Below are positions 37,694-62,210 of a DNA stretch of 64,000 nt, in pieces; the first letter of the stretch is position 1; each line of letters opens with the position of its first letter. The DNA is from a virus (taxonomy: Duplodnaviria; Caudoviricetes). The position numbers were made by a program, and so were the translations under genes. A model generated the notes under the pieces. That model worked only from the letters and a program-made list of their open reading frames with translations, had not been told where the DNA came from and searched no databases. Location: IMG/VR virus record IMGVR_UViG_2974637922_000001, positions 64,001 through 128,000 of that record, one strand, 5' to 3'.

Positions 37694-37758
37694 TGTTATA
37701 ATGTAAGTAGCTTGGGAAGCTGAGTTACTCACCCCTACCCAAGCGGTGGGGGTTTTTT
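37694..37758 (+). promoter_or_regulatory. Extended -10 promoter followed by an overlapping antiterminator/terminator
   Basis: TGtTATAAT (37694-37702); GCTTGGG/CCCAAGC pairing (37710-16/37738-44) competes with terminator ACCCCTACC/GGTGGGGGT+T5 (37731-37758). Confidence 0.6.
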
Positions 37759-37777
37759 ATTGCCTAGATAAACAACT

Positions 37778-38038
37778 ATGAACGGATCATTAGACCCAGA
37801 CGAAAGAGTGTTGAGTGCTAACTCCAAACTATCAGAAGTACCAGTATCCCTACAAAGGGCTATTGATATTCTTGGTTGGGATGATGTAGACGACATTCGT
37901 GTAGAGATTGGTGGATGTGCTACTAGTGGTATTCACCAGAAAGAAGACGCAAACCCAAAGTGGTCTCGTGAATTTGGTGATACTGTCTATAACAAGGACG
38001 CGTTTATTGTTATCAAAAATAGAAGCAGAAGTCAATGA
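37778..38038 (+). CDS. Conserved cyanophage hypothetical protein
   Basis: 86 aa; 'IGG...SGI.....NPKW....G....KDAFIVIKN'; ATGA-coupled to g3. Confidence 0.65.
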   Translation: MNGSLDPDERVLSANSKLSEVPVSLQRAIDILGWDDVDDIRVEIGGCATSGIHQKEDANPKWSREFGDTVYNKDAFIVIKNRSRSQ

Positions 38039-38616
38039 CCAACATCTACTACAAACAACTAGATAATAGAAACTTTATGAGTCCTATTGGATTCCAGTTT
38101 TCTATTGCTAGATATCCTAAAGTTTCTTTCTTTAGTAATAAAGCAGGACTACCTGAGATTCGTTTGGGTGGGGCAGAACAAGCCAACTATCTAAAACAGA
38201 TTATGCACCCTGGAGACAGGGTAGAGTATGGTGAACTCAATATTGAGTTCCTAGTGGACGAAGATATGTTGAACTATACTCTCATTCATAACTGGATTAC
38301 TGGATTGGGATTCCCAGAGACTCCCCAACAATTCAAAGATATCACCACCAATCAAAAAGGTGAAGATGATATGAAGATCCAGTATAGTGATGGAACACTT
38401 GCTATTTTGAATAGTAACTATAATACTATTGCGAAAGTTAAGTTCTGGGATCTATACCCCACTTCACTATCAACTCTTGAGTTCTCTGCTACAGATGCTG
38501 ATATCAATTACTTCATTGCAAGTACAACGTTCAGTTTCTTGTACTATCAGATCTTGGGTAAGGATAATGAACCCCTAACTCCTGAATTTGTAAACCAATC
38601 ATTGAATACTCGATGA
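38035..38616 (+). CDS. g3: Tail completion/tube terminator gp3
   Basis: 'NRNFMSPIGF.F...YPKV.FF', 'FLVDEDM.NY..IHNWI.GLGFP'; upstream of uvsY. Confidence 0.85.
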   Translation: MTNIYYKQLDNRNFMSPIGFQFSIARYPKVSFFSNKAGLPEIRLGGAEQANYLKQIMHPGDRVEYGELNIEFLVDEDMLNYTLIHNWITGLGFPETPQQFKDITTNQKGEDDMKIQYSDGTLAILNSNYNTIAKVKFWDLYPTSLSTLEFSATDADINYFIASTTFSFLYYQILGKDNEPLTPEFVNQSLNTR

Positions 38617-39047
38617 ACCTTGATGAACTTCAATCCATGTGGGAGCGTGACTCCAAGATGGATATGGATAACTTACACGATGAATCACTAAAGATACCCC
38701 AACTTCACCAGAAATACTTTACCCTGTATACCACTACCAAACTTCTAAAGAAGAAGGCAGAGGATACTATCAGTAAGGTGAGGTTGGAACGCCACAACTA
38801 CTATAGTGGCAAAGCCCCCGCAGAGGTATATGTGGAGGAACCCTTTCCATATAAGGTAAGGGACAAAGAATCTATGAACCTACACCTGAACGCAGATGAA
38901 AAACTGACGAAGGTGAAGTTGAAAATACAGTATTACGAAATGATGTTGGAGTATCTTGAGGATGTCCTCAGGATGATTCATGCACGTGGATACCAAATTA
39001 AAAACAGTATAGATTTCCTCCGGTTCCAAGCAGGGATCGGCATGTAA
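38613..39047 (+). CDS. uvsY: Recombination mediator UvsY
   Basis: 'W..DS.MD...L..ESLKIPQLH.KY', 'YYSGKA', 'RGYQIKNSIDF'. Confidence 0.88.
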   Translation: MNLDELQSMWERDSKMDMDNLHDESLKIPQLHQKYFTLYTTTKLLKKKAEDTISKVRLERHNYYSGKAPAEVYVEEPFPYKVRDKESMNLHLNADEKLTKVKLKIQYYEMMLEYLEDVLRMIHARGYQIKNSIDFLRFQAGIGM

Positions 39048-39052
39048 CAACT

Positions 39053-39241
39053 ATGAAACAATACGACTACTCAGTAGATCTCACAATAGATGATGTAAAA
39101 CTCATCCACCATTGTGTAACCAAGAGGATTGAAATGTGGGAGGGTTCTCCTGCACGTCCCCCAGAAGAACAAGAACACTTGTGGGCACTAAGGGATGGGT
39201 TTTTCACTATCATCCTAGAAGAAACATTTAATAGAAAGTAA
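39053..39241 (+). CDS. Hypothetical protein
   Basis: 62 aa; 'W.GSPARPPEEQEHL'; fills the intergenic space. Confidence 0.6.
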   Translation: MKQYDYSVDLTIDDVKLIHHCVTKRIEMWEGSPARPPEEQEHLWALRDGFFTIILEETFNRK

Positions 39242-39288
39242 TACTATTTGATGGCATATACATACTAATAGGTTATGCCTATTACATT

Positions 39289-40752
39289 ATGTCATCTGAC
39301 TTGACTATAACCAAAGTTAATGAAGTATATTTAAAAGTAGATTGTGACCCTCATATTCAGTATGAGTTGAGGGATGCTTTCTGCTTTGAAGTTCCTGGTG
39401 CTAAATTCCATCCGTCATACAGAAAGAAGTTCTGGGATGGAAATATTCACCTGTTCTCACCACAGACTAGACAACTATACGTAGGTCTATTGGATAGACT
39501 GATTGCCTTCTGTGATCAGTATGGGTATACGTATGCCTTTAAAGATAATAAGTTCTATGGTCTCCCATATGAGATTAACGAGAACATCTCCCCAGAAGGG
39601 GTTACAGACTGGGTGAAGTCTATTACCAGTTATAAACCCCGTGACTACCAGTTGCATGGTATCTACGCCGCTCTAAGGTCCAATAGGAAGTTGATTGTAT
39701 CTCCTACTGCATCTGGTAAGTCATTAATGATCTATGCCTTGGTGGCATACTACACACAGAAACACGAAAATATATTGATTGTTGTTCCTACTACATCTCT
39801 AGTGGAACAGATGTATAAGGATTTTGCAGACTACGGGTTTGATGTGGGAACGAACTGCCATAAGATATACGCTGGTAGAGAAAACACAACAGATAAACAA
39901 GTAACTATTACAACCTGGCAGTCTATCTACAAGTTACCTAAGACATACTTTCAGAAGTATAGTGTAGTGATTGGGGATGAAGCACACAACTTTAAGTCTA
40001 AGTCTCTAGTATCCATTATGAGTAAGTTGTGTGATGCAAAGTATAGATATGGGTTCACAGGTACTTTAGACGGGTCACAGACCCATAAGTGGGTGTTAGA
40101 GGGGTTGTTTGGTCCTTCATACAATACCATCAGAACAAAAGAGTTGATGGAGGCAGGTCATGTTGCTAAACTAGACATCAAAGTTCTTCTACTAAAACAT
40201 GATGAACAAATCTTTCCAAGATTTGAGGATGAAATCCAATATCTAATTGGACATGAGAAGAGAAACAAGTTTATCAGTAACTTATCTTTAGATCTAAAAG
40301 GTAACACTCTAGTTCTCTTTGCTAGGGTGGAGAAACACGGAGAGGTCCTCTACAATCTAATAAATAGTAAGGCAGAAGAGGGTAGAAACGTCTTCTTCGT
40401 TCATGGTGGTGTTGATGTAGAGTCCAGAGAACAGGTACGAACTATTACTGAGAGGGAGAACAATGCTATTATCATTGCCTCTTATGGAGTTTATAGTACG
40501 GGTATTAACATTAAAAACCTACACAACGTTATCTTTGCTTCCCCATCTAAGTCCAGGATCAGGAACCTGCAATCGATTGGTAGGGTACTGAGAAAGGGAA
40601 CAAATAAAGATAAGGCAATGTTATATGACATTGCTGATGACTGCACAAAAGGATCAAGAAGAAACTACACACTTAATCATCTTATAGAGAGGATCAAGAT
40701 TTACAACAATGAAAAGTTCAATTATGACATAGTAAATATCAATCTAAGGTAA
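39289..40752 (+). CDS. uvsW: SF2 helicase UvsW
   Basis: 'SPTASGKS', 'GDEAH', 'LQSIGRVLR'. Confidence 0.95.
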   Translation: MSSDLTITKVNEVYLKVDCDPHIQYELRDAFCFEVPGAKFHPSYRKKFWDGNIHLFSPQTRQLYVGLLDRLIAFCDQYGYTYAFKDNKFYGLPYEINENISPEGVTDWVKSITSYKPRDYQLHGIYAALRSNRKLIVSPTASGKSLMIYALVAYYTQKHENILIVVPTTSLVEQMYKDFADYGFDVGTNCHKIYAGRENTTDKQVTITTWQSIYKLPKTYFQKYSVVIGDEAHNFKSKSLVSIMSKLCDAKYRYGFTGTLDGSQTHKWVLEGLFGPSYNTIRTKELMEAGHVAKLDIKVLLLKHDEQIFPRFEDEIQYLIGHEKRNKFISNLSLDLKGNTLVLFARVEKHGEVLYNLINSKAEEGRNVFFVHGGVDVESREQVRTITERENNAIIIASYGVYSTGINIKNLHNVIFASPSKSRIRNLQSIGRVLRKGTNKDKAMLYDIADDCTKGSRRNYTLNHLIERIKIYNNEKFNYDIVNINLR

Positions 40753-40756
40753 TCTT

Positions 40757-41161
40757 ATGAATGAGGTAAGACTAGCAGCAATCAAATTAGATAGTGGTGA
40801 AGAAATTATATGCTATGTCGTAGACGTAGTAGATAGGGGTTTGAATAAGAACCTTATAATTAAAGATCCACTTAAAGTTGAATATGTAGAAAGTACTAGA
40901 AAGAAAGCATATAAATTTACTCCATGGTTTCTACTAACTACAAGTAGGGAACATGAAATAGACATGAATAAGATCTTTGCTATCACAGGTGTCTATGATG
41001 AAGAAGTTAAAAAAGAATACACTAAATCATTTCACTTACAAATTGGACCACATAGTTTCAACCATACCAGTGAAACTGGTTATGTTGGATCAGTGAATAG
41101 GTTTAGAAAGCTTTTAGAGAAGATCTATAAGGAGGTGCCAAGTTCTCCTGATGAATGCTAA
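40757..41161 (+). CDS. Hypothetical protein, putative Sm-like beta fold
   Basis: 'AIKL.SGEEII', 'I.DPL.V', 'F.PW'; between uvsW and g55. Confidence 0.65.
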   Translation: MNEVRLAAIKLDSGEEIICYVVDVVDRGLNKNLIIKDPLKVEYVESTRKKAYKFTPWFLLTTSREHEIDMNKIFAITGVYDEEVKKEYTKSFHLQIGPHSFNHTSETGYVGSVNRFRKLLEKIYKEVPSSPDEC

Positions 41162-41188
41162 GCGACCCCTTTTCAACTCCACAAGAGT

Positions 41189-41217
41189 ATTATAACGACC
41201 ACCTGTTCAAATGGCAA
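41189..41217 (-). promoter_or_regulatory. Antisense sigma70 promoter TTGCCA-N17-TATAAT
   Basis: Reverse complement of tggcaa (41212-17) and attata (41189-94), with a 17-nt spacer. Confidence 0.65.
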
Positions 41218-41240
41218 GTATGAACCCCAAGGTATTCGTG

Positions 41241-41249
41241 TGTTATAAT
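41241..41249 (+). promoter_or_regulatory. Extended -10 promoter for g55
   Basis: TGtTATAAT 30 nt upstream of the ATG. Confidence 0.6.
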
Positions 41250-41279
41250 ATAAACATACTCAGATCCTAAGGAAATGAC

Positions 41280-41756
41280 ATGGCAAAGGCTAAATCAGAA
41301 CACTACGTAAACAATAAAGAGTTGCTAGCAGCACTCATCGATTATCGTGATAGGTTGGATATCGCAAGAAGAAGAGATTTACCTAAACCACGTATCAGTA
41401 ACTACGTAGGAGAGTGTTTCCTTAAGATTGCCACTCACCTTTCATACAAACCCAACTTCGTTAACTACATGTTCCGTGAGGACATGATCTCGGATGGTAT
41501 CGAGAACTGCGTACAATACATTCACAACTTTGACCCTAATAAGTCCAGAAACCCCTTTGCCTACTTCACTCAGATCATCCACTATGCTTTTCTGCGTAGG
41601 ATCCAAAGAGAGAAGAGACAACTAGACATCAAGAACAAGATTGTGGAGAAGACTGGTTTTGAGTCTCTGATGACAAGTGACACTAACTTGACAAACGAGT
41701 ATAGGAACGACTATAATGCCATCAGGGAAAACATTATTAACAAACTGAACTCATGA
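41280..41756 (+). CDS. g55: Late transcription sigma factor gp55
   Basis: 'HYVNNKE', 'NYMFREDMISDGIENC', 'NPFAYFTQI...AFLRRI..EK'. Confidence 0.96.
   Translation: MAKAKSEHYVNNKELLAALIDYRDRLDIARRRDLPKPRISNYVGECFLKIATHLSYKPNFVNYMFREDMISDGIENCVQYIHNFDPNKSRNPFAYFTQIIHYAFLRRIQREKRQLDIKNKIVEKTGFESLMTSDTNLTNEYRNDYNAIRENIINKLNS
41688..41717 (+). promoter_or_regulatory. Internal sigma70 promoter TTGACA-N18-TATAAT in the 3' end of g55
   Basis: TTGACA 41688-93 and TATAAT 41712-17; would drive the zinc-finger ORF and g47/g46. Confidence 0.6.
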
Positions 41757-41917
41757 ATCAGTACCCCACATCGTCTGATAATAGAAGGAATGATGCACAT
41801 CAAGAAGGCAGAACAACTTATATTAGTGAATCTGACTGCAAGGAATGTGGGTGTGTAGTCAAACTTGTATGGTCCAATAGGTGTCATTTCTGCACCATCA
41901 ATAAATCAAACTCATAA
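41753..41917 (+). CDS. 54-aa stand-alone zinc-finger protein (not in the ORF track)
   Basis: MNQYPTSSDNRRNDAHQEGRTTYISESDCKECGCVVKLVWSNRCHFCTINKSNS; two CxxC pairs; ATGA overlap with the g55 stop. Confidence 0.6.
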   Translation: MNQYPTSSDNRRNDAHQEGRTTYISESDCKECGCVVKLVWSNRCHFCTINKSNS

Positions 41918-41932
41918 AGGGAACAAACTAGA

Positions 41933-42982
41933 ATGGCATTGATCGCAGTTATCACGGATACTCATTATGGGGCGAGAAAAGGTGCTCAGTATCTTCATGA
42001 TCACTTTGAGAAGTTCTACTCTGAGGTATTCTTCCCCACACTAAAGGAGAGAGGTGTTAAAACCATTCTCCACATGGGTGACGCCTTTGATAGTAGGAAG
42101 TCTATTGGGTTTGAGGTACTCAACTGGGCAAAGAGAGTTGTATTCGATCCTATGGCAGAATACGATGTACATATGATCGTGGGAAATCATGATTGTTATT
42201 ACAAATCTACCAACAGAACTAACTCTCCAGACCTACTACTCAAAGACTACGACAATATCACCACCTATCATAGACCTACAGAGGTAACTCTAGAGGGTAT
42301 GGATACACTCCTACTCCCTTGGATTTGTGATGACAACAGGGAAGAGTCCCTGAAGATGATCAAGTCTTCCAAGTCTAAGTTTGCTGCTGGTCACTTAGAA
42401 CTAGATGGGTTTGAGGCATATAGGGGACATACTTACAGAGATGGTAAGTTGGACAATGGAGTATTCAATAACTTCGATAAAGTATTCTCTGGACACTTCC
42501 ATACTCGTTCAGACAACGGAAAGATCTTCTATGTGGGTAACCCCTATGAGATGTTCTGGAATGATGTAAATGATCCCAGAGGGTTTGTTCTACTGGATAC
42601 TGAAACTCTAGAGGTTGAGTATATCAACAATCCACATACCCTTTTCTCCGTTATCTACTATGAAGATACCAACTATAAACTCTTCAATGCCAAAGAGTAT
42701 GAAGGTAAGATTGTAAAGGTTATTGTCAGAAAGAATACTGACAGGAAACTCTTTGATAAGTTTCTAGACAAACTTATGAAGACCAATATCCTAGACATGA
42801 AGATCGTAGAGAACTTCAATATTCAGGAGGGGGAGGACTTCCAGGTAGAAGATATCGAAGAGAACACCCTATCAATTCTCAACCGATATGTAGATGAAGC
42901 AGACTATGAAGATAGTTCTATTCAGAAAGATGATATTAAGAATCTTATCTCTCAAATCTACCGAGAGGCATGTGAGGTATGA
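41933..42982 (+). CDS. g47: Recombination nuclease gp47 (Mre11/SbcD-like)
   Basis: Metallophosphoesterase motifs 'TDTHYG', 'GDAFD', 'GNHD', 'SGHFH'. Confidence 0.95.
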   Translation: MALIAVITDTHYGARKGAQYLHDHFEKFYSEVFFPTLKERGVKTILHMGDAFDSRKSIGFEVLNWAKRVVFDPMAEYDVHMIVGNHDCYYKSTNRTNSPDLLLKDYDNITTYHRPTEVTLEGMDTLLLPWICDDNREESLKMIKSSKSKFAAGHLELDGFEAYRGHTYRDGKLDNGVFNNFDKVFSGHFHTRSDNGKIFYVGNPYEMFWNDVNDPRGFVLLDTETLEVEYINNPHTLFSVIYYEDTNYKLFNAKEYEGKIVKVIVRKNTDRKLFDKFLDKLMKTNILDMKIVENFNIQEGEDFQVEDIEENTLSILNRYVDEADYEDSSIQKDDIKNLISQIYREACEV

Positions 42983-43272
42983 GAGACGCATGTTATATCA
43001 TTACTGCATCAGAAGCAAAGGGTATGGATGTATACACCATCAAATCTGAGGGTGTGAAGAATGTTCTAATCTTTGAGAAAGGTGAAGACGCTGAGAGGTA
43101 TGTTATAATGTTGAATGAAGATGAAGGATACATTGTGGGTGAAACACTAGAACTGGAAGTTTTTGAGGTTCCACTATCTGCCGTGGTAGAATCCCTGAAC
43201 GAGAAAGGTTATAGTTACATCTATGTGAAACCCGATGACCTGTTTATTCCACCTGATGCCAAGAAAGTTTAA
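42979..43272 (+). CDS. Hypothetical protein (DUF3110-like)
   Basis: 'VLIFE...DAERY..ML', 'DDLFIPP'; between g47 and g46. Confidence 0.65.
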   Translation: MRDACYIITASEAKGMDVYTIKSEGVKNVLIFEKGEDAERYVIMLNEDEGYIVGETLELEVFEVPLSAVVESLNEKGYSYIYVKPDDLFIPPDAKKV

Positions 43273-43274
43273 TT

Positions 43275-45002
43275 ATGTTGTTGTTTAAGAAACTAAGATG
43301 GCAGAACTTCCTATCCACTGGAGACAAGGGTATTGAAGTTGATTTCCTAATGAACAATACCAATCTTATCATTGGTAGTAATGGTGCTGGTAAGAGTACC
43401 CTTTTGGATGCTCTTACCTTTGTTCTATTCAATAAGCCATTCAGGAAGATCACCAAACCTCAACTAGTTAATAGTATCACTGAGAAGAGGTGTGTAGTTG
43501 AGATTGAGTTTGAAACAAACAATAAGAGTTACTTGGTTCGCCGTGGAATCAAACCTAATGTATTTGATATCGTAGTAGATGGGAAACTATTAGACAAGCG
43601 TGGTGATGACAGGGATAACCAGAAACTATTAGAAGAGAATATTCTTAAGGTTAATTATAAATCATTCACTCAGGTGATTATCCTTGGGGCATCTACTTTC
43701 GTCCCCTTTATGCAACTCACTGCCTCCAATCGTAGAGATGTGATTGAGGATCTACTAGACATCCGTGTATTTAGTCAGATGTCAGGTATCGTCAAGGATC
43801 GTATCAGGCAACTCCGTGAAGATATCAAGATTCTAGATCTCAAGAGGGGATCTCTTAGAGATAAGTCTGAGATGCAGAAGAACTTTATCAATGAGATTAC
43901 TAAGAAGGGTGAGAGTAATATTGAATCCAAAGGAGAGAAGATCAAGACTCTATTGTTTGAGAAGCAAACTCTAGAAACCGAGAATATCACAACTCTAACT
44001 AAACTGAAAGAACTTCAGGATGAGTTGGAGGGACTAGAGGATGCTTCTGATAAACTACGTAAGTTGGGTAGTCTAAGGGGTAAGATTTCCCAGAAGATTA
44101 CTACACTCACTAAGGAACACAAGTTCTTCAAAGACAATGCTTCCTGTCCTACCTGTACTCAGGATATTGATGAAGAGTTTCGTAGTGTCAGACTAAGTGA
44201 GTTGGGTGACAAAGCAAAGGAGATGAACAAAGGGTTTAAAGAACTAGAAGATACTATTGAACGAGAAGAGAACCGAGAGAATGAGTTTAAGAGTATCTCC
44301 AAACAGATTCTAGAACTCAACACCCAGGTAAGTACCAATAATACAAAGAACACCAGTATCAGTATGAATATTGGTGATCTCGAAAGTGAGATTGGATCTA
44401 TCAGGCACTCCATTGATAACCAAACAGAGGAGAAAGAGAAACTAGATCGTTTTCAAGATGACCTGAGTCGAGTATTTGATACCCTCTCCACTAGAAACTC
44501 TGAGATGGATAACAATAAGTTTGTCTATGAGTTACTGAAAGATGGTGGAGTGAAGACTAATATCATCCGCAAGTACATCCCCTTCATCAACAAACAGGTG
44601 AATAGGTATCTCCAGATGATGGAGTTCTATATTAACTTCGAGTTAGATGAAGAGTTTAATGAGACTGTAGTATCACCTATTCATGAGAACTTCTCATACT
44701 CTTCCTTCTCTGAGGGTGAGAAGATGAGAATTGACTTGGCACTTCTATTCACCTGGAGAGAAGTTGCTAGGGTTAGAAACTCTGTGAATACAAACCTCCT
44801 AATTATGGATGAGGTGTTTGATAGTTCTCTAGATGGTTTTGGAACAGAAGAGTTCCTCAAAATCATCAGATATGTTGTCCAAGATGCTAATGTATTCATA
44901 ATTAGTCACAAACAAGAACTCCACGAACGTTTCGATAGTGTTCTACGATTTGAAAAGGATAGAGGGTTCTCCAAACTAACTCTAAATAAAACAAACGATT
45001 AA
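43275..45002 (+). CDS. g46: Recombination ATPase gp46 (Rad50/SbcC-like)
   Basis: 'GSNGAGKST', Zn-hook 'CPTC', 'FSEGEK', 'MDEVFDSSLD', 'ISH'. Confidence 0.96.
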   Translation: MLLFKKLRWQNFLSTGDKGIEVDFLMNNTNLIIGSNGAGKSTLLDALTFVLFNKPFRKITKPQLVNSITEKRCVVEIEFETNNKSYLVRRGIKPNVFDIVVDGKLLDKRGDDRDNQKLLEENILKVNYKSFTQVIILGASTFVPFMQLTASNRRDVIEDLLDIRVFSQMSGIVKDRIRQLREDIKILDLKRGSLRDKSEMQKNFINEITKKGESNIESKGEKIKTLLFEKQTLETENITTLTKLKELQDELEGLEDASDKLRKLGSLRGKISQKITTLTKEHKFFKDNASCPTCTQDIDEEFRSVRLSELGDKAKEMNKGFKELEDTIEREENRENEFKSISKQILELNTQVSTNNTKNTSISMNIGDLESEIGSIRHSIDNQTEEKEKLDRFQDDLSRVFDTLSTRNSEMDNNKFVYELLKDGGVKTNIIRKYIPFINKQVNRYLQMMEFYINFELDEEFNETVVSPIHENFSYSSFSEGEKMRIDLALLFTWREVARVRNSVNTNLLIMDEVFDSSLDGFGTEEFLKIIRYVVQDANVFIISHKQELHERFDSVLRFEKDRGFSKLTLNKTND

Positions 45003-45007
45003 ATCTT

Positions 45008-45136
45008 ATGAAAAGGTTCTTGTTATTTGGTGCTATATTCGCACTAGTTGGTGCTGGACTATCACATGGTCAGTTTCACCTCTACAACTCTTCTGTTCCA
45101 CATGTTCATGAAAATGGAGTAATTCATTCACACTAA
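45008..45136 (+). CDS. 42-aa secreted/membrane-anchored His-rich peptide (not in the ORF track)
   Basis: MKRFLLFGAIFALVGAGLSHGQFHLYNSSVPHVHENGVIHSH; CTAAATA late-type box at 44982-88. Confidence 0.6.
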   Translation: MKRFLLFGAIFALVGAGLSHGQFHLYNSSVPHVHENGVIHSH

Positions 45137-45140
45137 TATT

Positions 45141-45863: not shown

Positions 45864-45907
45864 ACTGTCCACCCCCACCAGTCATGGGGGTTTTTCTATG
45901 CCATAAT
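45849..45907 (+). promoter_or_regulatory. Early-type promoter with an upstream palindrome and a terminator-like hairpin
   Basis: GTGGACA-N10-TGTCCAC (45849-72); ACCCCCA/TGGGGGT+T; TGcCATAAT (45899-45907). Confidence 0.6.
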
Positions 45908-45931
45908 AGGTTCATACCAAGGGAAACACCT

Positions 45932-52002: not shown

Positions 52003-52293
52003 ATGAATGTTAAACTAATCCGTATGAATTCCGGCGAAGATGTTATCGCCGACCTCATCAGTGAGACTGATGATACACTAGTTCTATCCAACCCTATTGT
52101 TTTAGTTCCTGGTCAAGGTGGAACACTGGGTTTCGCCCCATGGTCACCAGTTCTCTCCCCAGATGTTAAGGAGATTACAATCAAGTCCAGCTACATTGTA
52201 TTCATGAGTGAGCCAAATGAGGATGTAGTGGATAACTACAACCAAATCTTTTCCCCCATTGTCACACCAAGCAGTAAAGGATTAATCTTATGA
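52003..52293 (+). CDS. Hypothetical protein, putative Sm-like fold
   Basis: 'VKLIRM.SGEDVIADL', 'NPIVLVP', 'FAPW'. Confidence 0.65.
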   Translation: MNVKLIRMNSGEDVIADLISETDDTLVLSNPIVLVPGQGGTLGFAPWSPVLSPDVKEITIKSSYIVFMSEPNEDVVDNYNQIFSPIVTPSSKGLIL

Positions 52294-53897: not shown

Positions 53898-53957
53898 CCT
53901 ATATATCAGTGAGACTATTTTCTCTGGGAGTATTGATCTCCCAAATATCGTCGCACC

Positions 53958-54010
53958 TGGGGGGTCCTGTCACAAAACAGGGTTGCCCCCTTTTTGGTGC
54001 ATGTTATAAT
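53958..54010 (+). promoter_or_regulatory. Terminator-like hairpin overlapping a sigma70 promoter for the gp43 operon
   Basis: GGGGG..CCTG/CAGG..CCCCC+T5; TTGCCC (53983-88) and TGtTATAAT (54002-10). Confidence 0.55.
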
Positions 54011-54025
54011 ATAGTATAAACTAAA

Positions 54026-54412
54026 ATGAACAATGATTATGATAGGGAACTTCCTTCCCCAACCGGATCTACGGGGGCAGTTGAACTAATGATTGAATCT
54101 ATTGACTTGATGAGCAACAATGATCCAGTAGTAAAACTAGTTCTACTGAAGAATAATGAAACTATTATTGCTGAGGTTCGTGAGAGTATCGATGGAAGTA
54201 GTGTTCAGCTCATTGATCCTCGTGTAGTTCTACTACAGGCAGCAAGACCATCTGATGACGGACAGACTACAACAACTGCCATCTCATATACCGACTGGTT
54301 ACCTTTGTCTGAGAGTAGAAACTTCACTATTGATGGTGATTATGTGGTCCTTATCACTGATCCCATTGAAAGTTTAGTACAAAGTTATACACAGGCACGA
54401 CAAAATGGATGA
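54026..54412 (+). CDS. Hypothetical protein, putative Sm-like fold (true start may be downstream)
   Basis: 'VKLVLLKNNETIIAEV.E', 'L.DP', 'WLPLS', 'DP...L...Y'. Confidence 0.65.
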   Translation: MNNDYDRELPSPTGSTGAVELMIESIDLMSNNDPVVKLVLLKNNETIIAEVRESIDGSSVQLIDPRVVLLQAARPSDDGQTTTTAISYTDWLPLSESRNFTIDGDYVVLITDPIESLVQSYTQARQNG

Positions 54413-54686
54413 AACTATTAGAGTATTGGTCTTGACCAATGGAAAAGTCCTTATCAGTAAGATCGAAGAGATAGGAGGTGCTGATATCGGGGAGCCAGAC
54501 TGCCGTCTAACCGACCCAGTATGGTATAATGATGAGGTGGAGGAAATGACCGAAGGGTTCAAACGCTTTCCTGGTAAGGGGATCACACCCGATACCAAGT
54601 TGGCCATCTCTTCTGTCAATATCTTGACTCTGGTTACCCCAGATAATAAACTCCTCAGTGAATACCTCGTGTTTATTAGTGATTAA
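54405..54686 (+). CDS. Hypothetical protein, putative Sm-like fold
   Basis: 'LIS.IEE...ADIGEPDC.L..P', 'ILTLV.P...L...Y'; immediately upstream of gp43. Confidence 0.7.
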   Translation: MDETIRVLVLTNGKVLISKIEEIGGADIGEPDCRLTDPVWYNDEVEEMTEGFKRFPGKGITPDTKLAISSVNILTLVTPDNKLLSEYLVFISD

Positions 54687-56161: not shown

Positions 56162-56316
56162 GTTTTCGTCACAAAACATATGGTGGTCTAGTTCATTATG
56201 ACCACAATGATAAGATTATCGTCATTGAACGTCGATTGAATCCAATGCAACATCACGCTATGCTTGTGAGTAAGTTGAAGGAAGAGTATCCAGAGTATCA
56301 AGTAGTTACTGGATAG
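56158..56316 (+). CDS. 52-aa ORF between the gp43 halves (not in the ORF track)
   Basis: MSFRHKTYGGLVHYDHNDKIIVIERRLNPMQHHAMLVSKLKEEYPEYQVVTG; ATGA overlap with the gp43A stop; GAGGTG SD. Confidence 0.65.
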   Translation: MSFRHKTYGGLVHYDHNDKIIVIERRLNPMQHHAMLVSKLKEEYPEYQVVTG

Positions 56317-56531
56317 TGAGTGGTTTAGTTGCTGAGATTATGCAAGTCGTTACTATGATTACTATGCTATTCAATATGTGCAATAGTAATGAGTTCAACA
56401 GACAAGCATGTATGAAAGACTGGGATACTTGGTTATTACCTGAGATATCCCGTGCGTGGCAAATTAAAACAGGTCAGGAAGCCCCTTACCAAAACGAGGA
56501 AGATGTGGTAGAATGGCACCAACAGCAGTGA
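56316..56531 (+). CDS. 71-aa ORF between the gp43 halves
   Basis: TAGTG overlap with the previous ORF; hydrophobic N-terminus, 'C..DW..WL.PEI.RAW'. Confidence 0.6.
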   Translation: MSGLVAEIMQVVTMITMLFNMCNSNEFNRQACMKDWDTWLLPEISRAWQIKTGQEAPYQNEEDVVEWHQQQ

Positions 56532-56532
56532 G

Positions 56533-57702
56533 GTGTTTATCGGTTATCTTATTGGTGGTTCGAGTGAAGGACCCGATGAGGAGATTGTACAATCAGATAG
56601 TGACTATTCTAAACTATCTGATAAGCAACTGCAATACCTAAGAGCACAAACCATAAAGGATATCGCTAAGTTTTATAACTTCCAGCAAGTAAGGAAAATT
56701 ACCCTAAACTCCGCTTATGGTGCTTTGGGTAACCAATACTTCAGATACTACAAACTGGCGAACGCGGAGGCAGTGACCTTCTCTGGTCAGTTAAGTATCC
56801 GTTGGATTGAGAATAAGATGAATGGATTCATCAATGAGATTCTAAAAACAGAGGGTAAGGATTATGTGATCGCCTCTGATACTGACTCTATCTACATTAA
56901 CTTTGGTGATGTGGTAGATAAGTTCTTGAAGAAGTTTGATGGTGATAAGGAGAAGACTGTATCAATGGTAGATAAGATCTGTAAGGATCAACTAGAACCC
57001 TTCATTGATAAGTGCTATTCTCAGTTGGGTGAGTATGTGAATGCATACGAACAGAAGATGCAGATGAAGAGAGAGAATATTGCAGATAGGGGTATATGGA
57101 CAGCGAAGAAGAGATATATCCTGAACGTGTGGGATAGTGAAGGTGTTCGTTATGAGGAACCTAAACTGAAGATGATGGGTATTGAGGCTGTGAAGTCATC
57201 TACACCTGCCCCTTGTAGAACTATGATCAAGGATGCTCTCCGTATTATCATTGAGAAATCTGAGGATGAAGTCATTGACTACATTGATGATTGTAGGAAG
57301 AAGTTCAAACAGATGAAACCAGAGGAGATCGCGTTTCCTCGTTCCGTTAGTGATATGATCAAGTTTCGTTCTGGGACAACAATATATGCTAAGAGTACTC
57401 CTATGCATGTGAGGGGGGCGTTACTATTCAATCATCACATTAAGAAGGGTGGGTTGGAGAACAAGTATTCTCTCATCAATAGTGGTGAGAAGATCAAGTT
57501 CTGCTACCTCAAGATTCCTAATCTAATTGGTGAGAATGTTATCTCATTCATCTCCGACTTTCCTAGGGAACTTAAGTTGGAGAAGTATGTTGATTATGAT
57601 ACCCAATTCAATAAAGCATTCCTAGATCCACTCAAGATCATCTTGGATGCTATTGGTTGGAACTGTGAGAAGCAGATGTCCTTGGAGTCATTTTTTACCT
57701 GA
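56533..57702 (+). CDS. g43: DNA polymerase gp43, C-terminal half (gp43B: second fingers helix, palm, thumb)
   Basis: Motif B 'KITLNSAYG', motif C 'SDTDSIY', 'KKRY', clamp-binding tail 'SLESFF'. Confidence 0.93.
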   Translation: MFIGYLIGGSSEGPDEEIVQSDSDYSKLSDKQLQYLRAQTIKDIAKFYNFQQVRKITLNSAYGALGNQYFRYYKLANAEAVTFSGQLSIRWIENKMNGFINEILKTEGKDYVIASDTDSIYINFGDVVDKFLKKFDGDKEKTVSMVDKICKDQLEPFIDKCYSQLGEYVNAYEQKMQMKRENIADRGIWTAKKRYILNVWDSEGVRYEEPKLKMMGIEAVKSSTPAPCRTMIKDALRIIIEKSEDEVIDYIDDCRKKFKQMKPEEIAFPRSVSDMIKFRSGTTIYAKSTPMHVRGALLFNHHIKKGGLENKYSLINSGEKIKFCYLKIPNLIGENVISFISDFPRELKLEKYVDYDTQFNKAFLDPLKIILDAIGWNCEKQMSLESFFT

Positions 57703-57730
57703 TATATAAAACCCCCAGAGGAGATCACCA

Positions 57731-57889
57731 ATGGAAAAACAAAATCTAGCGATGGATCTATTCATCGAGTCTGTAATCAAACCAGACAGTGACCTTAGGG
57801 GTCAAGCATCAGAACAGGGTTGTCTAGAAGAACTATTGCAAATCCGTGATGATGTGATAAAATATCTTTATAACGAGAGGAAAAACTAG
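57731..57889 (+). CDS. 52-aa conserved hypothetical protein (not in the ORF track)
   Basis: MEKQNLAMDLFIESVIKPDSDLRGQASEQGCLEELLQIRDDVIKYLYNERKN; GAGGAG SD. Confidence 0.65.
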   Translation: MEKQNLAMDLFIESVIKPDSDLRGQASEQGCLEELLQIRDDVIKYLYNERKN

Positions 57890-57892
57890 TTT

Positions 57893-58126
57893 ATGGCGTT
57901 ATCCCAATCAGTGGAGAATTCCCTCAGGGAGGCAAGTTCGTCCCTGAGGAATGCTCTAGCTTTTGCTGCCAGACAGGAGAGATCACATACCTGTCAGCAT
58001 ATTGCTAAAGTATTAAACGATATTGATCTTATTCAGAGAACGGATGAGATGTTTGATACCCTTGATAGTATCAAGGATGGTAAGGGTGGTAGCAACCCAT
58101 TTGGTAAATTTGGTTTTGATGAATAA
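57893..58126 (+). CDS. Hypothetical helical protein
   Basis: 'MALS.SV..SL.EA...LRNALAFAARQE'; coupled to uvsX. Confidence 0.7.
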   Translation: MALSQSVENSLREASSSLRNALAFAARQERSHTCQHIAKVLNDIDLIQRTDEMFDTLDSIKDGKGGSNPFGKFGFDE

Positions 58127-59133
58127 TGGATTTCTTAAAGGATATTGTAAATGAAATTGGTGGCGACTTCACTCAGATTGCCTCAGAGATTGAAGAAAAC
58201 GAAACATACGTGGACACTGGTTCGTTCATCTTTAATGCTCTTGTATCTGGGTCTATCTATGGTGGTGTATCTGGTAACAAGATTACTGCAATTGCTGGGG
58301 AAAGTTCTACTGGAAAGACTTTCTTCTCACTCGCCGTGGTCAAGAACTTCTTGGATACTAATCCCGATGCATATTGCCTTTATTTTGATACTGAAGCTGC
58401 AATCAATAGAAACCTTCTTGAGTCACGAGGTATTGACCTTAAGCGGTTGGTTGTCGTCAATGTCGTTACAGTAGAAGAGTTTAGGATGAAGGCACTTAAG
58501 TGTGTCGATATCTACCAGAAGAAACCAGAAGACGAACGCAAACCTTGTATGTTTGTCCTAGATTCTCTGGGTATGTTGTCTACAGAGAAAGAGATCAATG
58601 ATGCTCTGAATGACAAGAACGTTCGTGATATGACTAAATCACAACTCATCAAAGGGGCTTTCAGGATGTTGACCTTGAAACTAGGTCAGGCTAAGATCCC
58701 AATGATTGTTACTAACCACACCTATGATGTGATTGGTGCCTATGTTCCTACTAAGGAAATGGGTGGTGGTTCAGGTCTCAAGTATGCCGCCTCTACTATT
58801 ATTCACCTCACTAAGAAGAAAGAGAAAGACGGTAAGGATGTTATTGGTAACATTATCAAGTGTAAGACAGCTAAGTCCAGACTCTCCAAAGAGAATACAG
58901 ACGTAGGTGTTAGACTATTCTATGATGAACGGGGTTTGGATAAGTACTATGGTCTCCTAGAACTTGGTGAGCTTGGTGGTATGTGGAAGAACGTAGCTGG
59001 TCGTTATGACTTGGGTGATGGTAAGAAGATCTACGCTAAAGAGATACTAAAGGATCCAGAGAAGTACTTCACCGAAGAAGTTATGGAGAAACTAGATGTT
59101 GTTGCTAGGGGAACATTCTCATATGGGTCATAA
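58126..59133 (+). CDS. uvsX: RecA-like recombinase UvsX
   Basis: 'AGESSTGKT', 'YFDTE', 'LDSLG', 'TNHTY', 'MGGGSGLKY'. Confidence 0.95.
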   Translation: MDFLKDIVNEIGGDFTQIASEIEENETYVDTGSFIFNALVSGSIYGGVSGNKITAIAGESSTGKTFFSLAVVKNFLDTNPDAYCLYFDTEAAINRNLLESRGIDLKRLVVVNVVTVEEFRMKALKCVDIYQKKPEDERKPCMFVLDSLGMLSTEKEINDALNDKNVRDMTKSQLIKGAFRMLTLKLGQAKIPMIVTNHTYDVIGAYVPTKEMGGGSGLKYAASTIIHLTKKKEKDGKDVIGNIIKCKTAKSRLSKENTDVGVRLFYDERGLDKYYGLLELGELGGMWKNVAGRYDLGDGKKIYAKEILKDPEKYFTEEVMEKLDVVARGTFSYGS

Positions 59134-59138
59134 ACAAT

Positions 59139-59669
59139 ATGAGTGAGTATATCAAACACTATAGGGGAGTTCTAACAGATACATCTTGTGATGTTCTGAT
59201 AGATGCTCTTCTGAGTGTAGATAGAAAGCATATAAAGGAACATCGAACAGATCGTAAAACATTTGATCAGGTGTTTCTTAATGCTGCAAATATGGATCTG
59301 ATTCCAGGTATTACTAAAATAGTTGGTAATGTAATCAAACAATACAAGATGGATGTTCCATACTTCACACAGTTCTTTCCCAAGGGACTGGAGATTGAAA
59401 CACCAAAGGTCAAAGGTTACAGTCCTGGAGGACAATTCAAACCACATTGTGATGTGGATGCTACTTCCTGTCCAAGGTATCTTGCCTTTCTATTTTATCT
59501 TAATGATAATTTTACAGGTGGACAAACAGAGTTCTTACCTGGTATAATGGTGGAACCTGTGAAAGGTTCAGTGGTGGTATTTCCACCCAACTGGCAACAC
59601 CCTCATTGTGGATTACCAGTGGAGACTGGTAACAAATATATTATGTCAACTTATCTAAGATACGTTTAA
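59139..59669 (+). CDS. 2OG-Fe(II) oxygenase
   Basis: 'PHCD', 'LAFLFYLND..TGG.T', 'FPP.W..PH.G', 'KY'. Confidence 0.85.
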   Translation: MSEYIKHYRGVLTDTSCDVLIDALLSVDRKHIKEHRTDRKTFDQVFLNAANMDLIPGITKIVGNVIKQYKMDVPYFTQFFPKGLEIETPKVKGYSPGGQFKPHCDVDATSCPRYLAFLFYLNDNFTGGQTEFLPGIMVEPVKGSVVVFPPNWQHPHCGLPVETGNKYIMSTYLRYV

Positions 59670-61036
59670 TGGATCGAATTGAGAATTTAATACTAAGATC
59701 ACTCTCACATAGTGAAGGGTTTTCTAGGAAGGTTATCCCCTTCATCAAACCAGATTATTTCCATGATAATGCTGAGAAAGTTCTCTTCGAAGAAATCGCA
59801 CAATACATTGTCAAGTACAACTCTAATGTTACTGTACAGGCTCTAAGTATTGAGGTGGAACAGAGAACCGATTTATCTGATAGTGATGTCAAAACTATCA
59901 GAACTATCCTAGATGACTTTGATGCAGTCACAGGAACTGATGAGTGGATGATTGATTCCACTGAGAAGTGGTGTAAGAAACAGGCAATTTACAACGCTCT
60001 TATGGAGTCTGTGAGTATTGCCAATGGAGATAGTCAGACTAAGGCTGAAGACGCTATCCCCAGTATCCTCTCAGAGGCTCTGGGTGTATCCTTTGATAGT
60101 AATGTAGGTCACGACTACATTGAGAACGCAGAGGATAGGTGGGAGTACTACCACCAGAAGGAAGATAAGATTCCCTTCGATATTGATCTACTCAATGCGA
60201 TTACTAAAGGTGGATTACCTAACAAGACACTGAATATCGCACTCGCTGGTACTGGTGTTGGTAAGTCACTCTTTATGTGTCACGTAGCAGCCTCTAGTTT
60301 AATGCAGGGTAAGAATGTTCTATACATCACTGCTGAGATGGCAGAAGAGAAGATCGCAGAACGTATTGACTCCAACCTACTCAACGTTAATATTAAGGAT
60401 CTATCTGAACTACCCAAACAGATGTTTGAGAAGAAGATAGATGCGGTATCTAAGAAGACACAAGGTTCCTTGGTTATCAAGGAGTATCCTACAGCTTCTG
60501 CACACTCAGGACACTTCAAGTCTCTACTTAACGAACTAAAACTCAAGAAGAACTTCACACCAGATATTATCTTTATTGATTATCTCAATATCTGTGCTTC
60601 CTCTCGTATCAGAGCTGGTGCTAACGCTAACTCCTACACACTAGTGAAGAGTATCGCAGAAGAGATTCGTGGTCTAGCGGTAGAGTTCAACGTTCCTATC
60701 GTGAGTGCTACTCAGACGACTCGTAGTGGGTATGGAAACAGTGACGTGGGTATCACAGATACCTCTGAGTCTTTCGGTCTTCCTGCAACCGCTGACCTTA
60801 TGATCGCTCTTATCTCCACAGAGGAGCTAGAAGGTCTAGGTCAAATTATGGTTAAACAACTCAAGAACAGATACAATGATCCCACCATCCACAAGCGTTT
60901 TGTTGTCGGTATTGACAGAGCTAAGATGCGGTTGTATGACTGTGAGCAGGCGGCTCAGGATGATATTCTGGATAGTGGTGACGACTCTGAGGAAAAGACT
61001 TCCCTCAAGGATAAGTTGGCAAAACTGAGTTTCTAG
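59669..61036 (+). CDS. g41: Replicative helicase gp41 (DnaB-like)
   Basis: 'AGTGVGKS', 'EMAEE', 'IDYLNI', 'ATQTTRSG', 'KQLKNRY'. Confidence 0.96.
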   Translation: MDRIENLILRSLSHSEGFSRKVIPFIKPDYFHDNAEKVLFEEIAQYIVKYNSNVTVQALSIEVEQRTDLSDSDVKTIRTILDDFDAVTGTDEWMIDSTEKWCKKQAIYNALMESVSIANGDSQTKAEDAIPSILSEALGVSFDSNVGHDYIENAEDRWEYYHQKEDKIPFDIDLLNAITKGGLPNKTLNIALAGTGVGKSLFMCHVAASSLMQGKNVLYITAEMAEEKIAERIDSNLLNVNIKDLSELPKQMFEKKIDAVSKKTQGSLVIKEYPTASAHSGHFKSLLNELKLKKNFTPDIIFIDYLNICASSRIRAGANANSYTLVKSIAEEIRGLAVEFNVPIVSATQTTRSGYGNSDVGITDTSESFGLPATADLMIALISTEELEGLGQIMVKQLKNRYNDPTIHKRFVVGIDRAKMRLYDCEQAAQDDILDSGDDSEEKTSLKDKLAKLSF

Positions 61037-61044
61037 TGTATAAT
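61016..61044 (+). promoter_or_regulatory. Sigma70 promoter TTGGCA-N17-TATAAT
   Basis: -35 at 61016-21, -10 at 61039-44, overlapping the end of g41. Confidence 0.65.
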
Positions 61045-61050
61045 GGTTAT

Positions 61051-61122
61051 GTTGGGAAGAAACCCCAACCTCCTTTGTGATGTGGTGTTTGTTGGGGAAG
61101 GGGTGGTTCCCTTCCCTTTTTT
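61051..61122 (+). ncRNA. Candidate ~70-nt small RNA or attenuator leader upstream of mazG
   Basis: 5' hairpin GTTGGG/CCCAAC, ACCTCCTTT linker, terminator GGGAAGGG/CCCTTCCC+T6; alternative CCCCAAC/GTTGGGG pairing. Confidence 0.5.
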
Positions 61123-61146
61123 ATTGTTTATTGGTATTCAATTATT

Positions 61147-61551
61147 ATGAGCGTAGATTTTTCTAAGTACGGTGAGTTTGTAGACACAGTAACTAGTGCC
61201 CCCTCCAAGGGAACTGGTGAGATGATCGCAGTACTCAAGGACCTTAAGCTTCGTGGAGCACAACCCGAAAGACTTCTTACTGGTGCAGTTGGTATCTGTG
61301 CTGAGGGTGGTGAGTTCATGGAAGTGGTCAAGAAGATGGTATTCCAAGGCAAACCCTATGACCAAGATAATGTCTGGCATATGAAGCGTGAGTTGGGTGA
61401 TATTATGTTCTATGTACAAACAGCGTGTATCGCTCTAGGTACCTCTGTTGATGAGATTGTAGAGATGAATGTGGAGAAACTAGAAGCACGATATCCAGGT
61501 GGTCAATTTAGTGTAGAGAATAGTGAGAACCGAGTAGAGGGTGACTTATGA
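61147..61551 (+). CDS. mazG: MazG-like nucleotide pyrophosphohydrolase
   Basis: 'AEGGEFMEVVKK', 'ELGD..FY', 'N..KL..RYP'. Confidence 0.92.
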   Translation: MSVDFSKYGEFVDTVTSAPSKGTGEMIAVLKDLKLRGAQPERLLTGAVGICAEGGEFMEVVKKMVFQGKPYDQDNVWHMKRELGDIMFYVQTACIALGTSVDEIVEMNVEKLEARYPGGQFSVENSENRVEGDL

Positions 61552-61670
61552 TTGCATCTGATACACATAATGAACCCACTGAGTTAATCAGACAAATCAA
61601 TGATTCAGTGGAACGTGCTAGAATGAAGGAACAAGACGATCAACTAAACTACGACACAGGAGGTAAATGA
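61548..61670 (+). CDS. 40-aa hypothetical protein (not in the ORF track)
   Basis: MIASDTHNEPTELIRQINDSVERARMKEQDDQLNYDTGGK; ATGA overlaps at both ends. Confidence 0.5.
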   Translation: MIASDTHNEPTELIRQINDSVERARMKEQDDQLNYDTGGK

Positions 61671-61975
61671 TGGACAAGCCAATTACAGTTGAGGAATATC
61701 AAGAGGCTGGTAAAGAGTTCTGGCCTAAGTATTGGTATGTTGCTAAAGAACTTGGTGAAAACGCTAAGACTGAAGATGTCCTACACGTTATGGAGTCTCT
61801 TGCTGGTGTTGTTATGGTCAACAGAAGCAATGAAAAGAAAGAATATTCTGGTATGATTGGGTTCAATAAGTCCCTAGAAGACAACCCATTGGCTTCTGCT
61901 ACATACCACGGACAACCAGTTACAGAGTGTCCCCCAGGGACTATCTACTGTAACGGTGAATGTTGTGACCTATGA
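61667..61975 (+). CDS. Hypothetical protein with a Cys-rich C-terminal tail
   Basis: 'KY.YVA.ELGE.AK.ED.L.VMESL' core plus 'CPPG..YCNGECCDL'; GGAGG SD. Confidence 0.65.
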   Translation: MMDKPITVEEYQEAGKEFWPKYWYVAKELGENAKTEDVLHVMESLAGVVMVNRSNEKKEYSGMIGFNKSLEDNPLASATYHGQPVTECPPGTIYCNGECCDL

Positions 61976-61983
61976 GGTAAATT

Positions 61984-62118
61984 ATGGCTAAAAGAACTTA
62001 TACTACAAAGTCTGGAGATGTGTTTGAGTGGGAAGAGACCCCTGAAACTACTGCAGCACTCAAAGCTCTCCACAGACAAGTGGCAGAGACAAAACAGAAG
62101 CTTGACAGCACCAAGTGA
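61984..62118 (+). CDS. 44-aa hypothetical protein (not in the ORF track)
   Basis: MAKRTYTTKSGDVFEWEETPETTAALKALHRQVAETKQKLDSTK; GAGGT SD. Confidence 0.55.
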   Translation: MAKRTYTTKSGDVFEWEETPETTAALKALHRQVAETKQKLDSTK

Positions 62119-62130
62119 GTCTGTTATAAT
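62102..62130 (+). promoter_or_regulatory. Consensus sigma70 promoter TTGACA-N17-TATAAT (with extended TG) for the RNA cluster
   Basis: TTGACA 62102-07, TATAAT 62125-30. Confidence 0.85.
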
Positions 62131-62135
62131 ATGAG

Positions 62136-62210
62136 AGTTGGGAAGGAAACCCCCCAACTGCGGTGACCCCCTTGGTAGTTCAGGGTTAGCGGCGATAGGA
62201 ACTACCACAA
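62136..62210 (+). ncRNA. Candidate structured RNA: 5' hairpin plus H-type pseudoknot
   Basis: AGTTGGG/CCCAACT; TGACCC (62164-69)/GGGTTA (62183-88) crossing TGGTAGTTC (62173-81)/GAACTACCA (62199-207). Confidence 0.55.

Follow-up and report, generated by a model that had tools for sequence, protein, structure and literature searches.

The DNA is from a Synechococcus phage ACG-2014f-like, T4-type marine cyanophage, and the window, by which we mean the whole stretch that was analysed, is 64,000 nucleotides long. On its + strand the octamer TTGGGAAG begins at 37712 (site 1), 61052 (site 2) and 62138 (site 3), at a distance from a TATAAT box of 9, 7 and 7 nt, respectively, so that all three intergenic positions and offsets given in the first-pass annotation are reproduced. 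The three sites have a common layout, in which the stop codon of the upstream gene is followed by the −10 box, then by 6 nt and then by a hairpin, with the predicted +1 at the start of the hairpin and the octamer in its 5' arm. The features are as follows.

37694..37702, + strand: site 1 extended −10 promoter (TGTTATAAT), directly 3' of the TAG stop at 37691–37693
37709..37723, + strand: site 1 15-mer, invariant and placed at the predicted +1, with the octamer (37712–37719) inside it; reverse complement to the anticodon arm of host tRNA-Gly(CCC)
37731..37759, + strand: site 1 intrinsic terminator, 9-bp stem (37731–37753) and T run
61016..61044, + strand: site 2 sigma-70-type promoter, TTGGCA-17-TATAAT, match 11/12
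61051..61069, + strand: site 2 +1 hairpin, GTTGGG / 7-nt loop / CCCAAC, a P0 copy restricted to the clade
61070..61123, + strand: site 2 invariant linker of 24 nt containing CCUCCU, then intrinsic terminator (61094–61117) and T run
62102..62130, + strand: site 3 consensus sigma-70 promoter, TTGACA-17-TATAAT with TG extension, match 12/12
62137..62158, + strand: site 3 helix P0, GTTGGG / 10-nt loop / CCCAAC, beginning 6 nt past the −10 box
62159..62208, + strand: site 3 conserved pseudoknot core (TGCGG ... GCGGCGATAGGAAC ...), not in Rfam
62211..62569, + strand: tRNA-Arg(TCT), manA RNA (RF01745, 62286–62496) and tRNA-Asn(GTT), downstream of site 3

The first-pass annotation had called for a count of the motif against shuffled controls. 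Over both strands of the 196,842-bp genome, TATAAT-N5-10-TTGGGAAG has three matches, none of them beyond sites 1–3, while in 300 dinucleotide shuffles the mean count is 0.023 and the maximum is 1. When any octamer repeated at the same offset is allowed, a count of three is reached in 15 of 200 shuffles, and when a complementary 5-mer downstream is required in addition, it is reached in none of the 200. The co-occurrence of the three sites is non-random. Scans of IMG/VR for TATAAT-N-TTGGGAAG, with or without CCCAA, gave matches that were mostly chance or coding, many of them being explained by crAss-like tRNA and by the 'YNGSAWEA' codons of tail fibres; the contigs L125 and L156 were treated as chance because they are GC-rich and unrelated. 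A covariance-model search of Rfam 15 gave no match at the three 5' elements, the only matches being the tRNAs and the manA RNA downstream of site 3.

Site 3 is helix P0 of a cyanophage pseudoknot RNA, which is widespread, has no Rfam entry and heads the tRNA/manA cluster in many cyanomyoviruses. The earlier description of this locus as the head of an ncRNA/tRNA cluster is thus borne out, with the pseudoknot RNA, tRNA-Arg, the manA RNA and tRNA-Asn following in order. Site 3 is a full member of that RNA family, having the −10 box, the 6 nt, the flush P0, TGCGG, the GCGGCGATAGGAAC core and then a tRNA, whereas at sites 1 and 2 there is no core, just a promoter with a +1 hairpin. Among 80 homologues, P0 pairs at the register 6 nt past the −10 box in 383 of 400 cells (95.8%), as against 19–41% at shifted registers, and it covaries at three of five base pairs, which shows a constraint at the RNA level. 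The commonest P0 stem in these homologues is GTTGA/TCAAC, with at least 12 other stems present, and in the comparison of 88 variants no other has the GTTGGG/CCCAAC stem of the window. On the minus strand, a stretch at G000:60929 resembles P0 but was rejected, as it is without the pseudoknot core.

At site 2 the −10 box lies directly 3' of the TAG stop of gp41 (61034–61036), and the ATG of mazG, at 61147, is downstream of the terminator. That the hairpin is closed by CCCAA, as was stated before, holds in the minimum-energy fold at sites 2 and 3, of which GTTGGG/CCCAAC is part, and at site 1 in the nascent RNA only. Site 2 is confined to the ACG-2014f clade, and its octamer reads TTGGGGAG in four of nine isolates and also on one contig that has TTGGGAAG at site 3; the TTGGGGAG alleles have a longer stem, of 7 bp. 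Two other readings of this stretch were pursued. A leader peptide, in a 32-codon TTG frame ending on the mazG ATG, was rejected because an allele with one additional nucleotide breaks the frame. As for a copy of the 16S 3' end in CCUCCUUU, GGATCACCTCCTTT does not occur in the two host genomes searched, in which only GGATCACCTCCT was found, and the single match inspected is non-rRNA.

Site 1 has an extended −10 box as its sole promoter element and follows a gene for an outer-membrane beta-barrel-like protein. It belongs to a cassette consisting of the −10 box, the invariant 15-mer at +1, a variable linker and a terminator, which three lineages of cyanomyoviruses share at one and the same place, where the head genes end and gp3/uvsY follow. 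These lineages are 70–80% identical, and in the cassette the 15-mer is the sole invariant block; TATAAT is also the same in all three, with differing flanks. The genes beside the cassette differ, with pstS in L107, gp23 in L562 (the L107, L420 and L562 contigs being fragments) and a different neighbour again in the window. In the version of L117 a G-U swap leaves the terminator stem intact. By energy prediction, CCCAAGC (37738–37744) in the nascent RNA can pair instead with GCTTGGG (37710–37716), at −14.1 kcal/mol and in competition with the terminator, while the complete RNA favours the local hairpin plus the terminator, at −21.3 kcal/mol. ARAGORN detects no tRNA here, and the reading of site 1 as a tRNA gene remnant was dropped.

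The similarity among the sites spans the −10 box through the octamer, with 22 of 26 positions identical between sites 1 and 3 and 16 of 17 between sites 2 and 3, scores that were reached in none of 2000 shuffles in either comparison. Based on these data, the eight letters that the three RNAs have in common are probably a copied promoter-plus-hairpin module and not a common control box. From the anatomy, conservation, covariation and polymorphism described above we infer transcription, RNA stability and a history of exchange in the following way. There would be three separate transcription units, all very short, in which RNA synthesis begins at the first base of a hairpin whose 5' arm is the octamer; the RNA made from each would be short, opening with a flush 5' stem-loop and ending in a terminator hairpin. 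The unit at site 1 is predicted to yield an RNA of ~50 nt and that at site 2 one of ~70 nt, and part of the transcription would read through into the downstream genes. The promoter module, from about −15 to +9, would have been exchanged among cassettes, with the helix restored afterwards by compensatory changes. Site 2 would then be a copied site 3 promoter and P0, followed by the 24-nt linker and a strong terminator before mazG, while site 1 would be part of a separate small cassette. The terminators of sites 1 and 2 were confirmed by a terminator scan, and the cassette edges are points at which gene content changes in the relatives L122, L107 and L562. To this account of short RNAs with a hairpin at both ends and an exchanged promoter module we give an even chance, with the start sites, RNA sizes and stability at the three sites all being predicted. 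Several points count against it: the members of the clade are too alike at sites 1 and 2 for covariation to be seen, the 15-mer of site 1 does not vary among its three lineages, a fourth promoter has a similar start (both described below), and the exact complementarity of the 15-mer to a host tRNA, as read from the sequences, suggests a function in trans.

A flush 5' stem-loop combined with a 3' terminator hairpin is a classic source of resistance to decay by RNases that need a free 5' end (RNase E/J), and RNAs capped in this way at sites 1–3 would withstand such decay. Stabiliser stem-loops at the 5' ends of bacterial RNAs, of the ompA leader type, were reportedly described by Emory, Bouvet and Belasco in 1992; the hairpins here are similar in having no or almost no unpaired 5' nucleotides, their stabilising effect being putative. 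The flush hairpin is not a general trait of the promoters of this phage. The idea that 5' hairpins mark its early promoters in general was rejected, since the mean 5' hairpin of the 36 TGnTATAAT promoters is −2.6 kcal/mol as against −3.1 kcal/mol in random windows, and the remaining 33 promoters are without the octamer motif. Sites 1–3 therefore appear to form a class of their own that goes with short or stable RNAs. Outside the window there is a fourth promoter whose predicted start is ATTGGGA inside a flush hairpin, and for this reason there may be some selection for UUGGGA at +2.

By contrast, it was proposed in the first-pass annotation that the 5'-end UUGGGAAG is recognised by one phage or host RNA-binding factor, or by a trans-acting RNA, that co-regulates gp3/uvsY/uvsW, mazG and the stable-RNA cluster. 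The recurrence of the octamer at one offset in all three sites, its invariance in the site 1 family, the start of the fourth promoter and the candidate binding proteins encoded between the sites all speak for such a regulon; RegA is indeed present (PF01818, E 1.5e-44), while the four Sm-like small proteins turn out to be three DUF6561 paralogues, with one faint Sm_like match (E 0.05). It is also predicted, as had been noted, that the octamer stands right at the 5' terminus of each of three promoter-proximal RNAs, within an RNA helix. However, at sites 2 and 3 it would be mostly buried in the stem. The P0 sequence varies freely among the 80 homologues, and both close isolates and metagenome variants have TTGGGGAG at site 2. 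The conserved unit of site 1 is the different and longer 15-mer, with the CCCAA partner missing in two of the three lineages. The relatives have no multi-copy counterpart: those in which P0 starts with GTTGAGA have that start once per genome. As judged from these sequences, the octamer as such is not conserved as a box, and we hold a shared regulon to be very unlikely. A related possibility is that sites 1 and 2 are cis-acting leader switches: the 5' arm would be involved in a competition between antiterminator and terminator that sets the read-through into gp3-uvsY-uvsW and mazG. Both loci do run into terminators with competing structures, as noted before, although by energy prediction only: both terminators lie between the promoter and the next gene, the nascent pairing at site 1 forms before the 3' arm of the terminator exists, and in the nascent RNA of site 2 CCUCCUU pairs with the 5' arm of the terminator. 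Against this, the antiterminator partner CCCAAGC is missing from the L107 and L562 cassettes, so that the alternative pairing of site 1 is not kept in relatives; the leaders offer no room for a ligand pocket and have no Rfam match, the logic is unlike between the two sites, and the full-length minimum-energy folds strongly favour the terminators. Attenuation at these sites is very unlikely. It can also be supposed that the repeats act mainly at the DNA level, as promoter-terminator insulators and recombination linkers for the shuffling of modules, with sites 1 and 2 as direct repeats bracketing a 23-kb replication/recombination module. This would be similar to the PeSL (promoter-early stem-loop) cassettes of T4-type phages (Arbiol 2010, PMC2839356; Comeau 2014, PMC4122927), which also consist of a repeated intergenic strong sigma-70-type promoter with a stem-loop or terminator, between a stop and the next start codon, and at the edges of which gene content shifts, as it may do here. 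The stretch from gp3 to gp41 lies between sites 1 and 2, the homology of L122 stops and resumes at the −35 box of site 3, and the neighbours of site 1 differ as described, these breakpoints in relatives being few cases. PeSLs, however, are many per genome, conserved over ~100 bp and dense in hyperplastic regions, with the stem-loop between or over the −35/−10 boxes (PMC2839356, PMC4122927), whereas here there are just three copies with ~25 nt in common, the hairpin begins 6 nt past the −10 box and would be transcribed from +1, and that of site 3 is part of a conserved structured RNA with P0 covariation. We regard a role mainly at the DNA level as very unlikely, on a par with the regulon.

Trans-acting small RNAs of the RybB/OmrA type have a conserved 5' seed and a Rho-independent terminator. 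The site 1 family fits this layout: it has a promoter to itself, its invariant block lies right at the 5' terminus, and a body of variable sequence leads to an intrinsic terminator. The family differs from that type in that its best complementary partner would be a tRNA anticodon arm and not an mRNA: phage mRNAs were rejected as targets of the 15-mer, the longest match being 11 nt and none lying near a start codon. The invariance of the 15-mer, octamer included, in lineages that are 70–80% identical points to selection on the sequence and not on the hairpin alone. The RNA of site 1 might act in trans, its 5' seed binding the anticodon arm of the host tRNA-Gly(CCC) with a 7-bp loop-loop kiss as the first contact, or its hairpin being an anticodon-arm look-alike, with UUGGGAA at sites 2 and 3 as the same anti-loop sequence. 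The 15-mer is the exact reverse complement of about positions 27–41 of this tRNA in two marine Synechococcus genomes, the 17-nt arm has one copy in 44 of 61 host-family genomes and none in the control, and the complementarity extends to 17 contiguous nt in L562 and to 20 of 22 in L107. Cofolding with the tRNA is predicted to give a net gain of −7.6 kcal/mol at site 1 and 0 at site 2. On the other hand, tRNAs are present in large amounts and have a tight fold, the match at sites 2 and 3 covers just 8 nt, mostly inside the stem, and a captured, inverted tRNA fragment with no antisense role could give the same 15-mer because anticodon stems are self-complementary. No precedent for a tRNA-directed phage RNA was found in the literature searched. 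Mimicry of tRNA-Pro is weak, since the loops of the host proline tRNAs are UUGGGG or UUUGGGA with G37 and not UUGGGAA. We hold a tRNA-directed action of site 1 to be unlikely. It is with the same small probability that we put forward its fuller form, in which an early cyanomyovirus RNA of ~50 nt, with an invariant 5' end exactly antisense to the anticodon arm of the only tRNA-Gly(CCC) of the host, would serve to bind, mask, sense or mimic this tRNA (for example, reshaping decoding or countering a tRNA-directed defence), and UUGGGAA would later have spread to two more RNAs in the ACG-2014f clade.

Returning to the copied promoter-plus-hairpin module, the comparative data set the tempting reading of a shared motif as a regulon apart from the reading that is supported, and they indicate that in a T4-type cyanophage one such module may be reused to head unrelated small RNAs. 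Two unannotated candidate small-RNA genes of the phage are predicted, one before gp3/uvsY and the other before mazG. Defences that target tRNAs, and the counter-measures of phages, are under active study (PMC11555353), and the tRNA match provides a sharp and cheap hypothesis, that of a phage RNA antisense to the anticodon arm of a host tRNA, which, if true, would be a new kind of phage-host interaction.

An 8-nt word (the octamer), described in the first-pass annotation as a shared 5' hairpin arm, occurs five times in the window (bases 64001-128000 of the 196,842-bp viral contig), and three of these occurrences lie 7-9 nt 3' of TATAAT. The window shows 98-99% identity to isolates of Synechococcus phage ACG-2014f, T4-type cyanomyoviruses of the genus Atlauavirus, and its genes run on the + strand. 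The three sites are as follows.

Site 1, window 37712, + strand: 3' of the head-gene block, with an outer-membrane beta-barrel-like gene (PF24653) upstream and a small ORF, gp3, uvsY and uvsW downstream.
Site 2, window 61052, + strand: in the gp41-mazG spacer.
Site 3, window 62138, + strand: 1.1 kb beyond site 2, upstream of tRNA-Arg, manA RNA and tRNA-Asn.

With site 1 lying after the head genes and site 2 between gp41 and mazG, the two bracket the whole 23-kb replication/recombination module, within which regA lies. Around regA and gp43 there are three paralogues of the small protein DUF6561 (window 52003-52293, 54026-54412 and 54405-54686), which are probably the proteins called Sm-like before, with one giving a faint Sm_like match (E 0.05) and the others none. 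Note also that the manA RNA (RF01745, 90 bits; window 62286-62496, between the two tRNAs) is absent from an IMG/VR relative, L122, that retains both tRNAs.

The recurrence after TATAAT is borne out by the genome-wide count, in which the composite pattern is found three times, at these sites only, versus a shuffle mean of 0.023. For any octamer recurring at that offset, 15 of 200 shuffles reached three, whereas with a complementary 5-mer also present downstream none of 200 did; the significance therefore lies in the combination. In the promoter scan, site 3 has a 12/12 promoter, site 2 an 11/12 promoter and site 1 an extended -10 only. Intrinsic terminators were found downstream of sites 1 and 2, in agreement with the earlier description of two loci running into terminators and a third leading the ncRNA/tRNA cluster. 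At all three sites the -10 box lies 0-6 nt after a stop codon and the hairpin starts 6 nt 3' of the -10 hexamer. Flush 5' hairpins of this kind are not typical of promoters in this phage and mark out the stable-RNA operon together with two promoter-hairpin-terminator units.

Several related layouts occur outside the window in the whole genome record. At G000:C1:141435-141465 a fourth promoter has a stop codon, TGATATAAT, 6 nt and the flush hairpin ATTGG-GAT-CCAAT, with no terminator and about 65 nt upstream of an ATG. At G000:C1:178523-178570, TGTTATAAT is directly 5' of a terminator hairpin, so that transcription starting 7 nt downstream would begin within the terminator's 5' arm; upstream transcripts would terminate there and newly started ones would be without a terminator. 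The layout 3' of gp41 in S-CAM7 is similar. Another TGCTATAAT promoter lies at G000:C1:27261-27340, and no more than a few nt beyond it begins a long imperfect hairpin (GGTAGTCAAACAGAG ... CTCTGTTTGCTACC), which may be a further small RNA.

BLAST shows that the site 3 leader shares a core of about 52 nt, at 84-98% identity, with many other cyanomyoviruses; in the majority of those examined it precedes tRNA-Pro or tRNA-Arg. Rfam contains no family matching this pseudoknot RNA. A scan with its 14-nt core gave 88 distinct homologues. The pairing of the 5' helix, P0, was tested in 80 homologues, with the 5' anchor set by the promoter alone (the seventh nt downstream of the best -10 hexamer) and the 3' anchor at the base preceding TGCGG. 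At this register 383 of 400 cells are paired, and shifting it by 1-3 nt lowers the pairing to 19-41%. Moreover, pairs 3-5 covary (TA/CG/GC, GC/AT/TA and AT/TA/GC). Thus a +1 helix is conserved in the site 3 RNA and its sequence is not: the commonest stem is GTTGA/TCAAC, and the window's GTTGGG/CCCAAC is unique among the 88. In three GenBank relatives checked, the P0 start occurs once per genome. Outside the window, the minus strand at G000:C1:60890-60935 carries TGTTATAAT and, after it, TTGAGATAGTCAAC-TGAGG, which resembles the family consensus P0-TGCGG; the pseudoknot core is absent behind it, and the stretch may have decayed from a copy or have arisen by chance.

At site 2 the hairpin is 16/17 identical to P0 of site 3, loop included, with the spacing likewise 6 nt. 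The entire gp41-mazG spacer is confined to the ACG-2014f clade; at this position S-CAM7 shows a plain terminator. The allele GTTGGGGAG...CCCCAAC is carried by four of nine isolates and by several metagenome contigs. It has a 7-bp stem and an invariant linker, and in three of the contigs the terminator has single changes. Since one contig (L446) has this allele alongside a TTGGGAAG site 3, the octamer is not constant and the two sites do not vary in concert. With P0 varying as well, the octamer does not hold as a fixed common element of sites 2 and 3. A putative leader ORF at site 2 was rejected, as the extra base of the GTTGGGGAG allele breaks it. The linker contains ACCUCCUUU (window 61068-61076), resembling the anti-Shine-Dalgarno end of 16S rRNA; its predicted partner in the nascent RNA is the 5' arm of the terminator.

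At site 1, exact-word scans found a 15-mer containing the octamer (window 37709-37723) 5-6 nt after TATAAT, with a terminator downstream, in two further lineages: downstream of pstS in L107/L420, and directly 3' of gp23 in L562 (80% identity to S-CAM7). S-CAM7 itself has no such cassette. The position in the genome is shared by all the cassettes, with the head genes on one side and gp3 on the other, and in their alignment TATAAT and the 15-mer are invariant while all else, terminator included, differs. The closure by CCCAA noted earlier is present only in the ACG-2014f clade, where folding predicts that the nascent RNA adopts it in competition with the terminator.

Many 15-mer matches are tRNA genes on the opposite strand. 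In marine Synechococcus genomes, located via psbA, the tRNA-Gly(CCC) anticodon arm is TCAGC-TTCCCAA-GCTGA, and the 15-mer is its exact reverse complement. The arm has one copy in 44 of 61 host-family genomes (reversed control, 0 matches). The complementarity reaches 17 nt in L562 and 20/22 in L107. Cofolding predicts a 15-bp heteroduplex at site 1 that is favoured by a net 7.6 kcal/mol, and no gain at site 2. The phage encodes tRNA-Arg and tRNA-Asn only; no phage mRNA target was found for the 15-mer, nor any precedent in the papers searched. Because anticodon stems are self-complementary, the 15-mer could also be an inverted tRNA fragment. We regard the novel reading, in which the site 1 RNA would act on host tRNA-Gly(CCC), as unlikely.

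By local alignment, sites 1 and 3 agree at 22/26 positions over the stretch between the extended -10 and the octamer, both included, and sites 2 and 3 are similar across the hairpin, both scores lying beyond 2000 shuffles. In the simplest history, cassettes would have exchanged a promoter-proximal module, and the P0 3' arm would then have been repaired. The few breakpoints seen in relatives coincide with the cassette edges. Such exchange would be like the shuffling mediated by promoter-early stem-loop cassettes (PeSLs) in other T4-type phages, although PeSLs differ in copy number, length and stem-loop position.

As to function, attenuation, the action of a shared factor on the three sites and a role at the DNA level are less likely alternatives. 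We favour short RNAs predicted to be protected at both ends, because the flush hairpins mark the stable-RNA operon and the promoter-hairpin-terminator units and not promoters generally. From these short RNA units, leaky read-through into the downstream genes would be expected.
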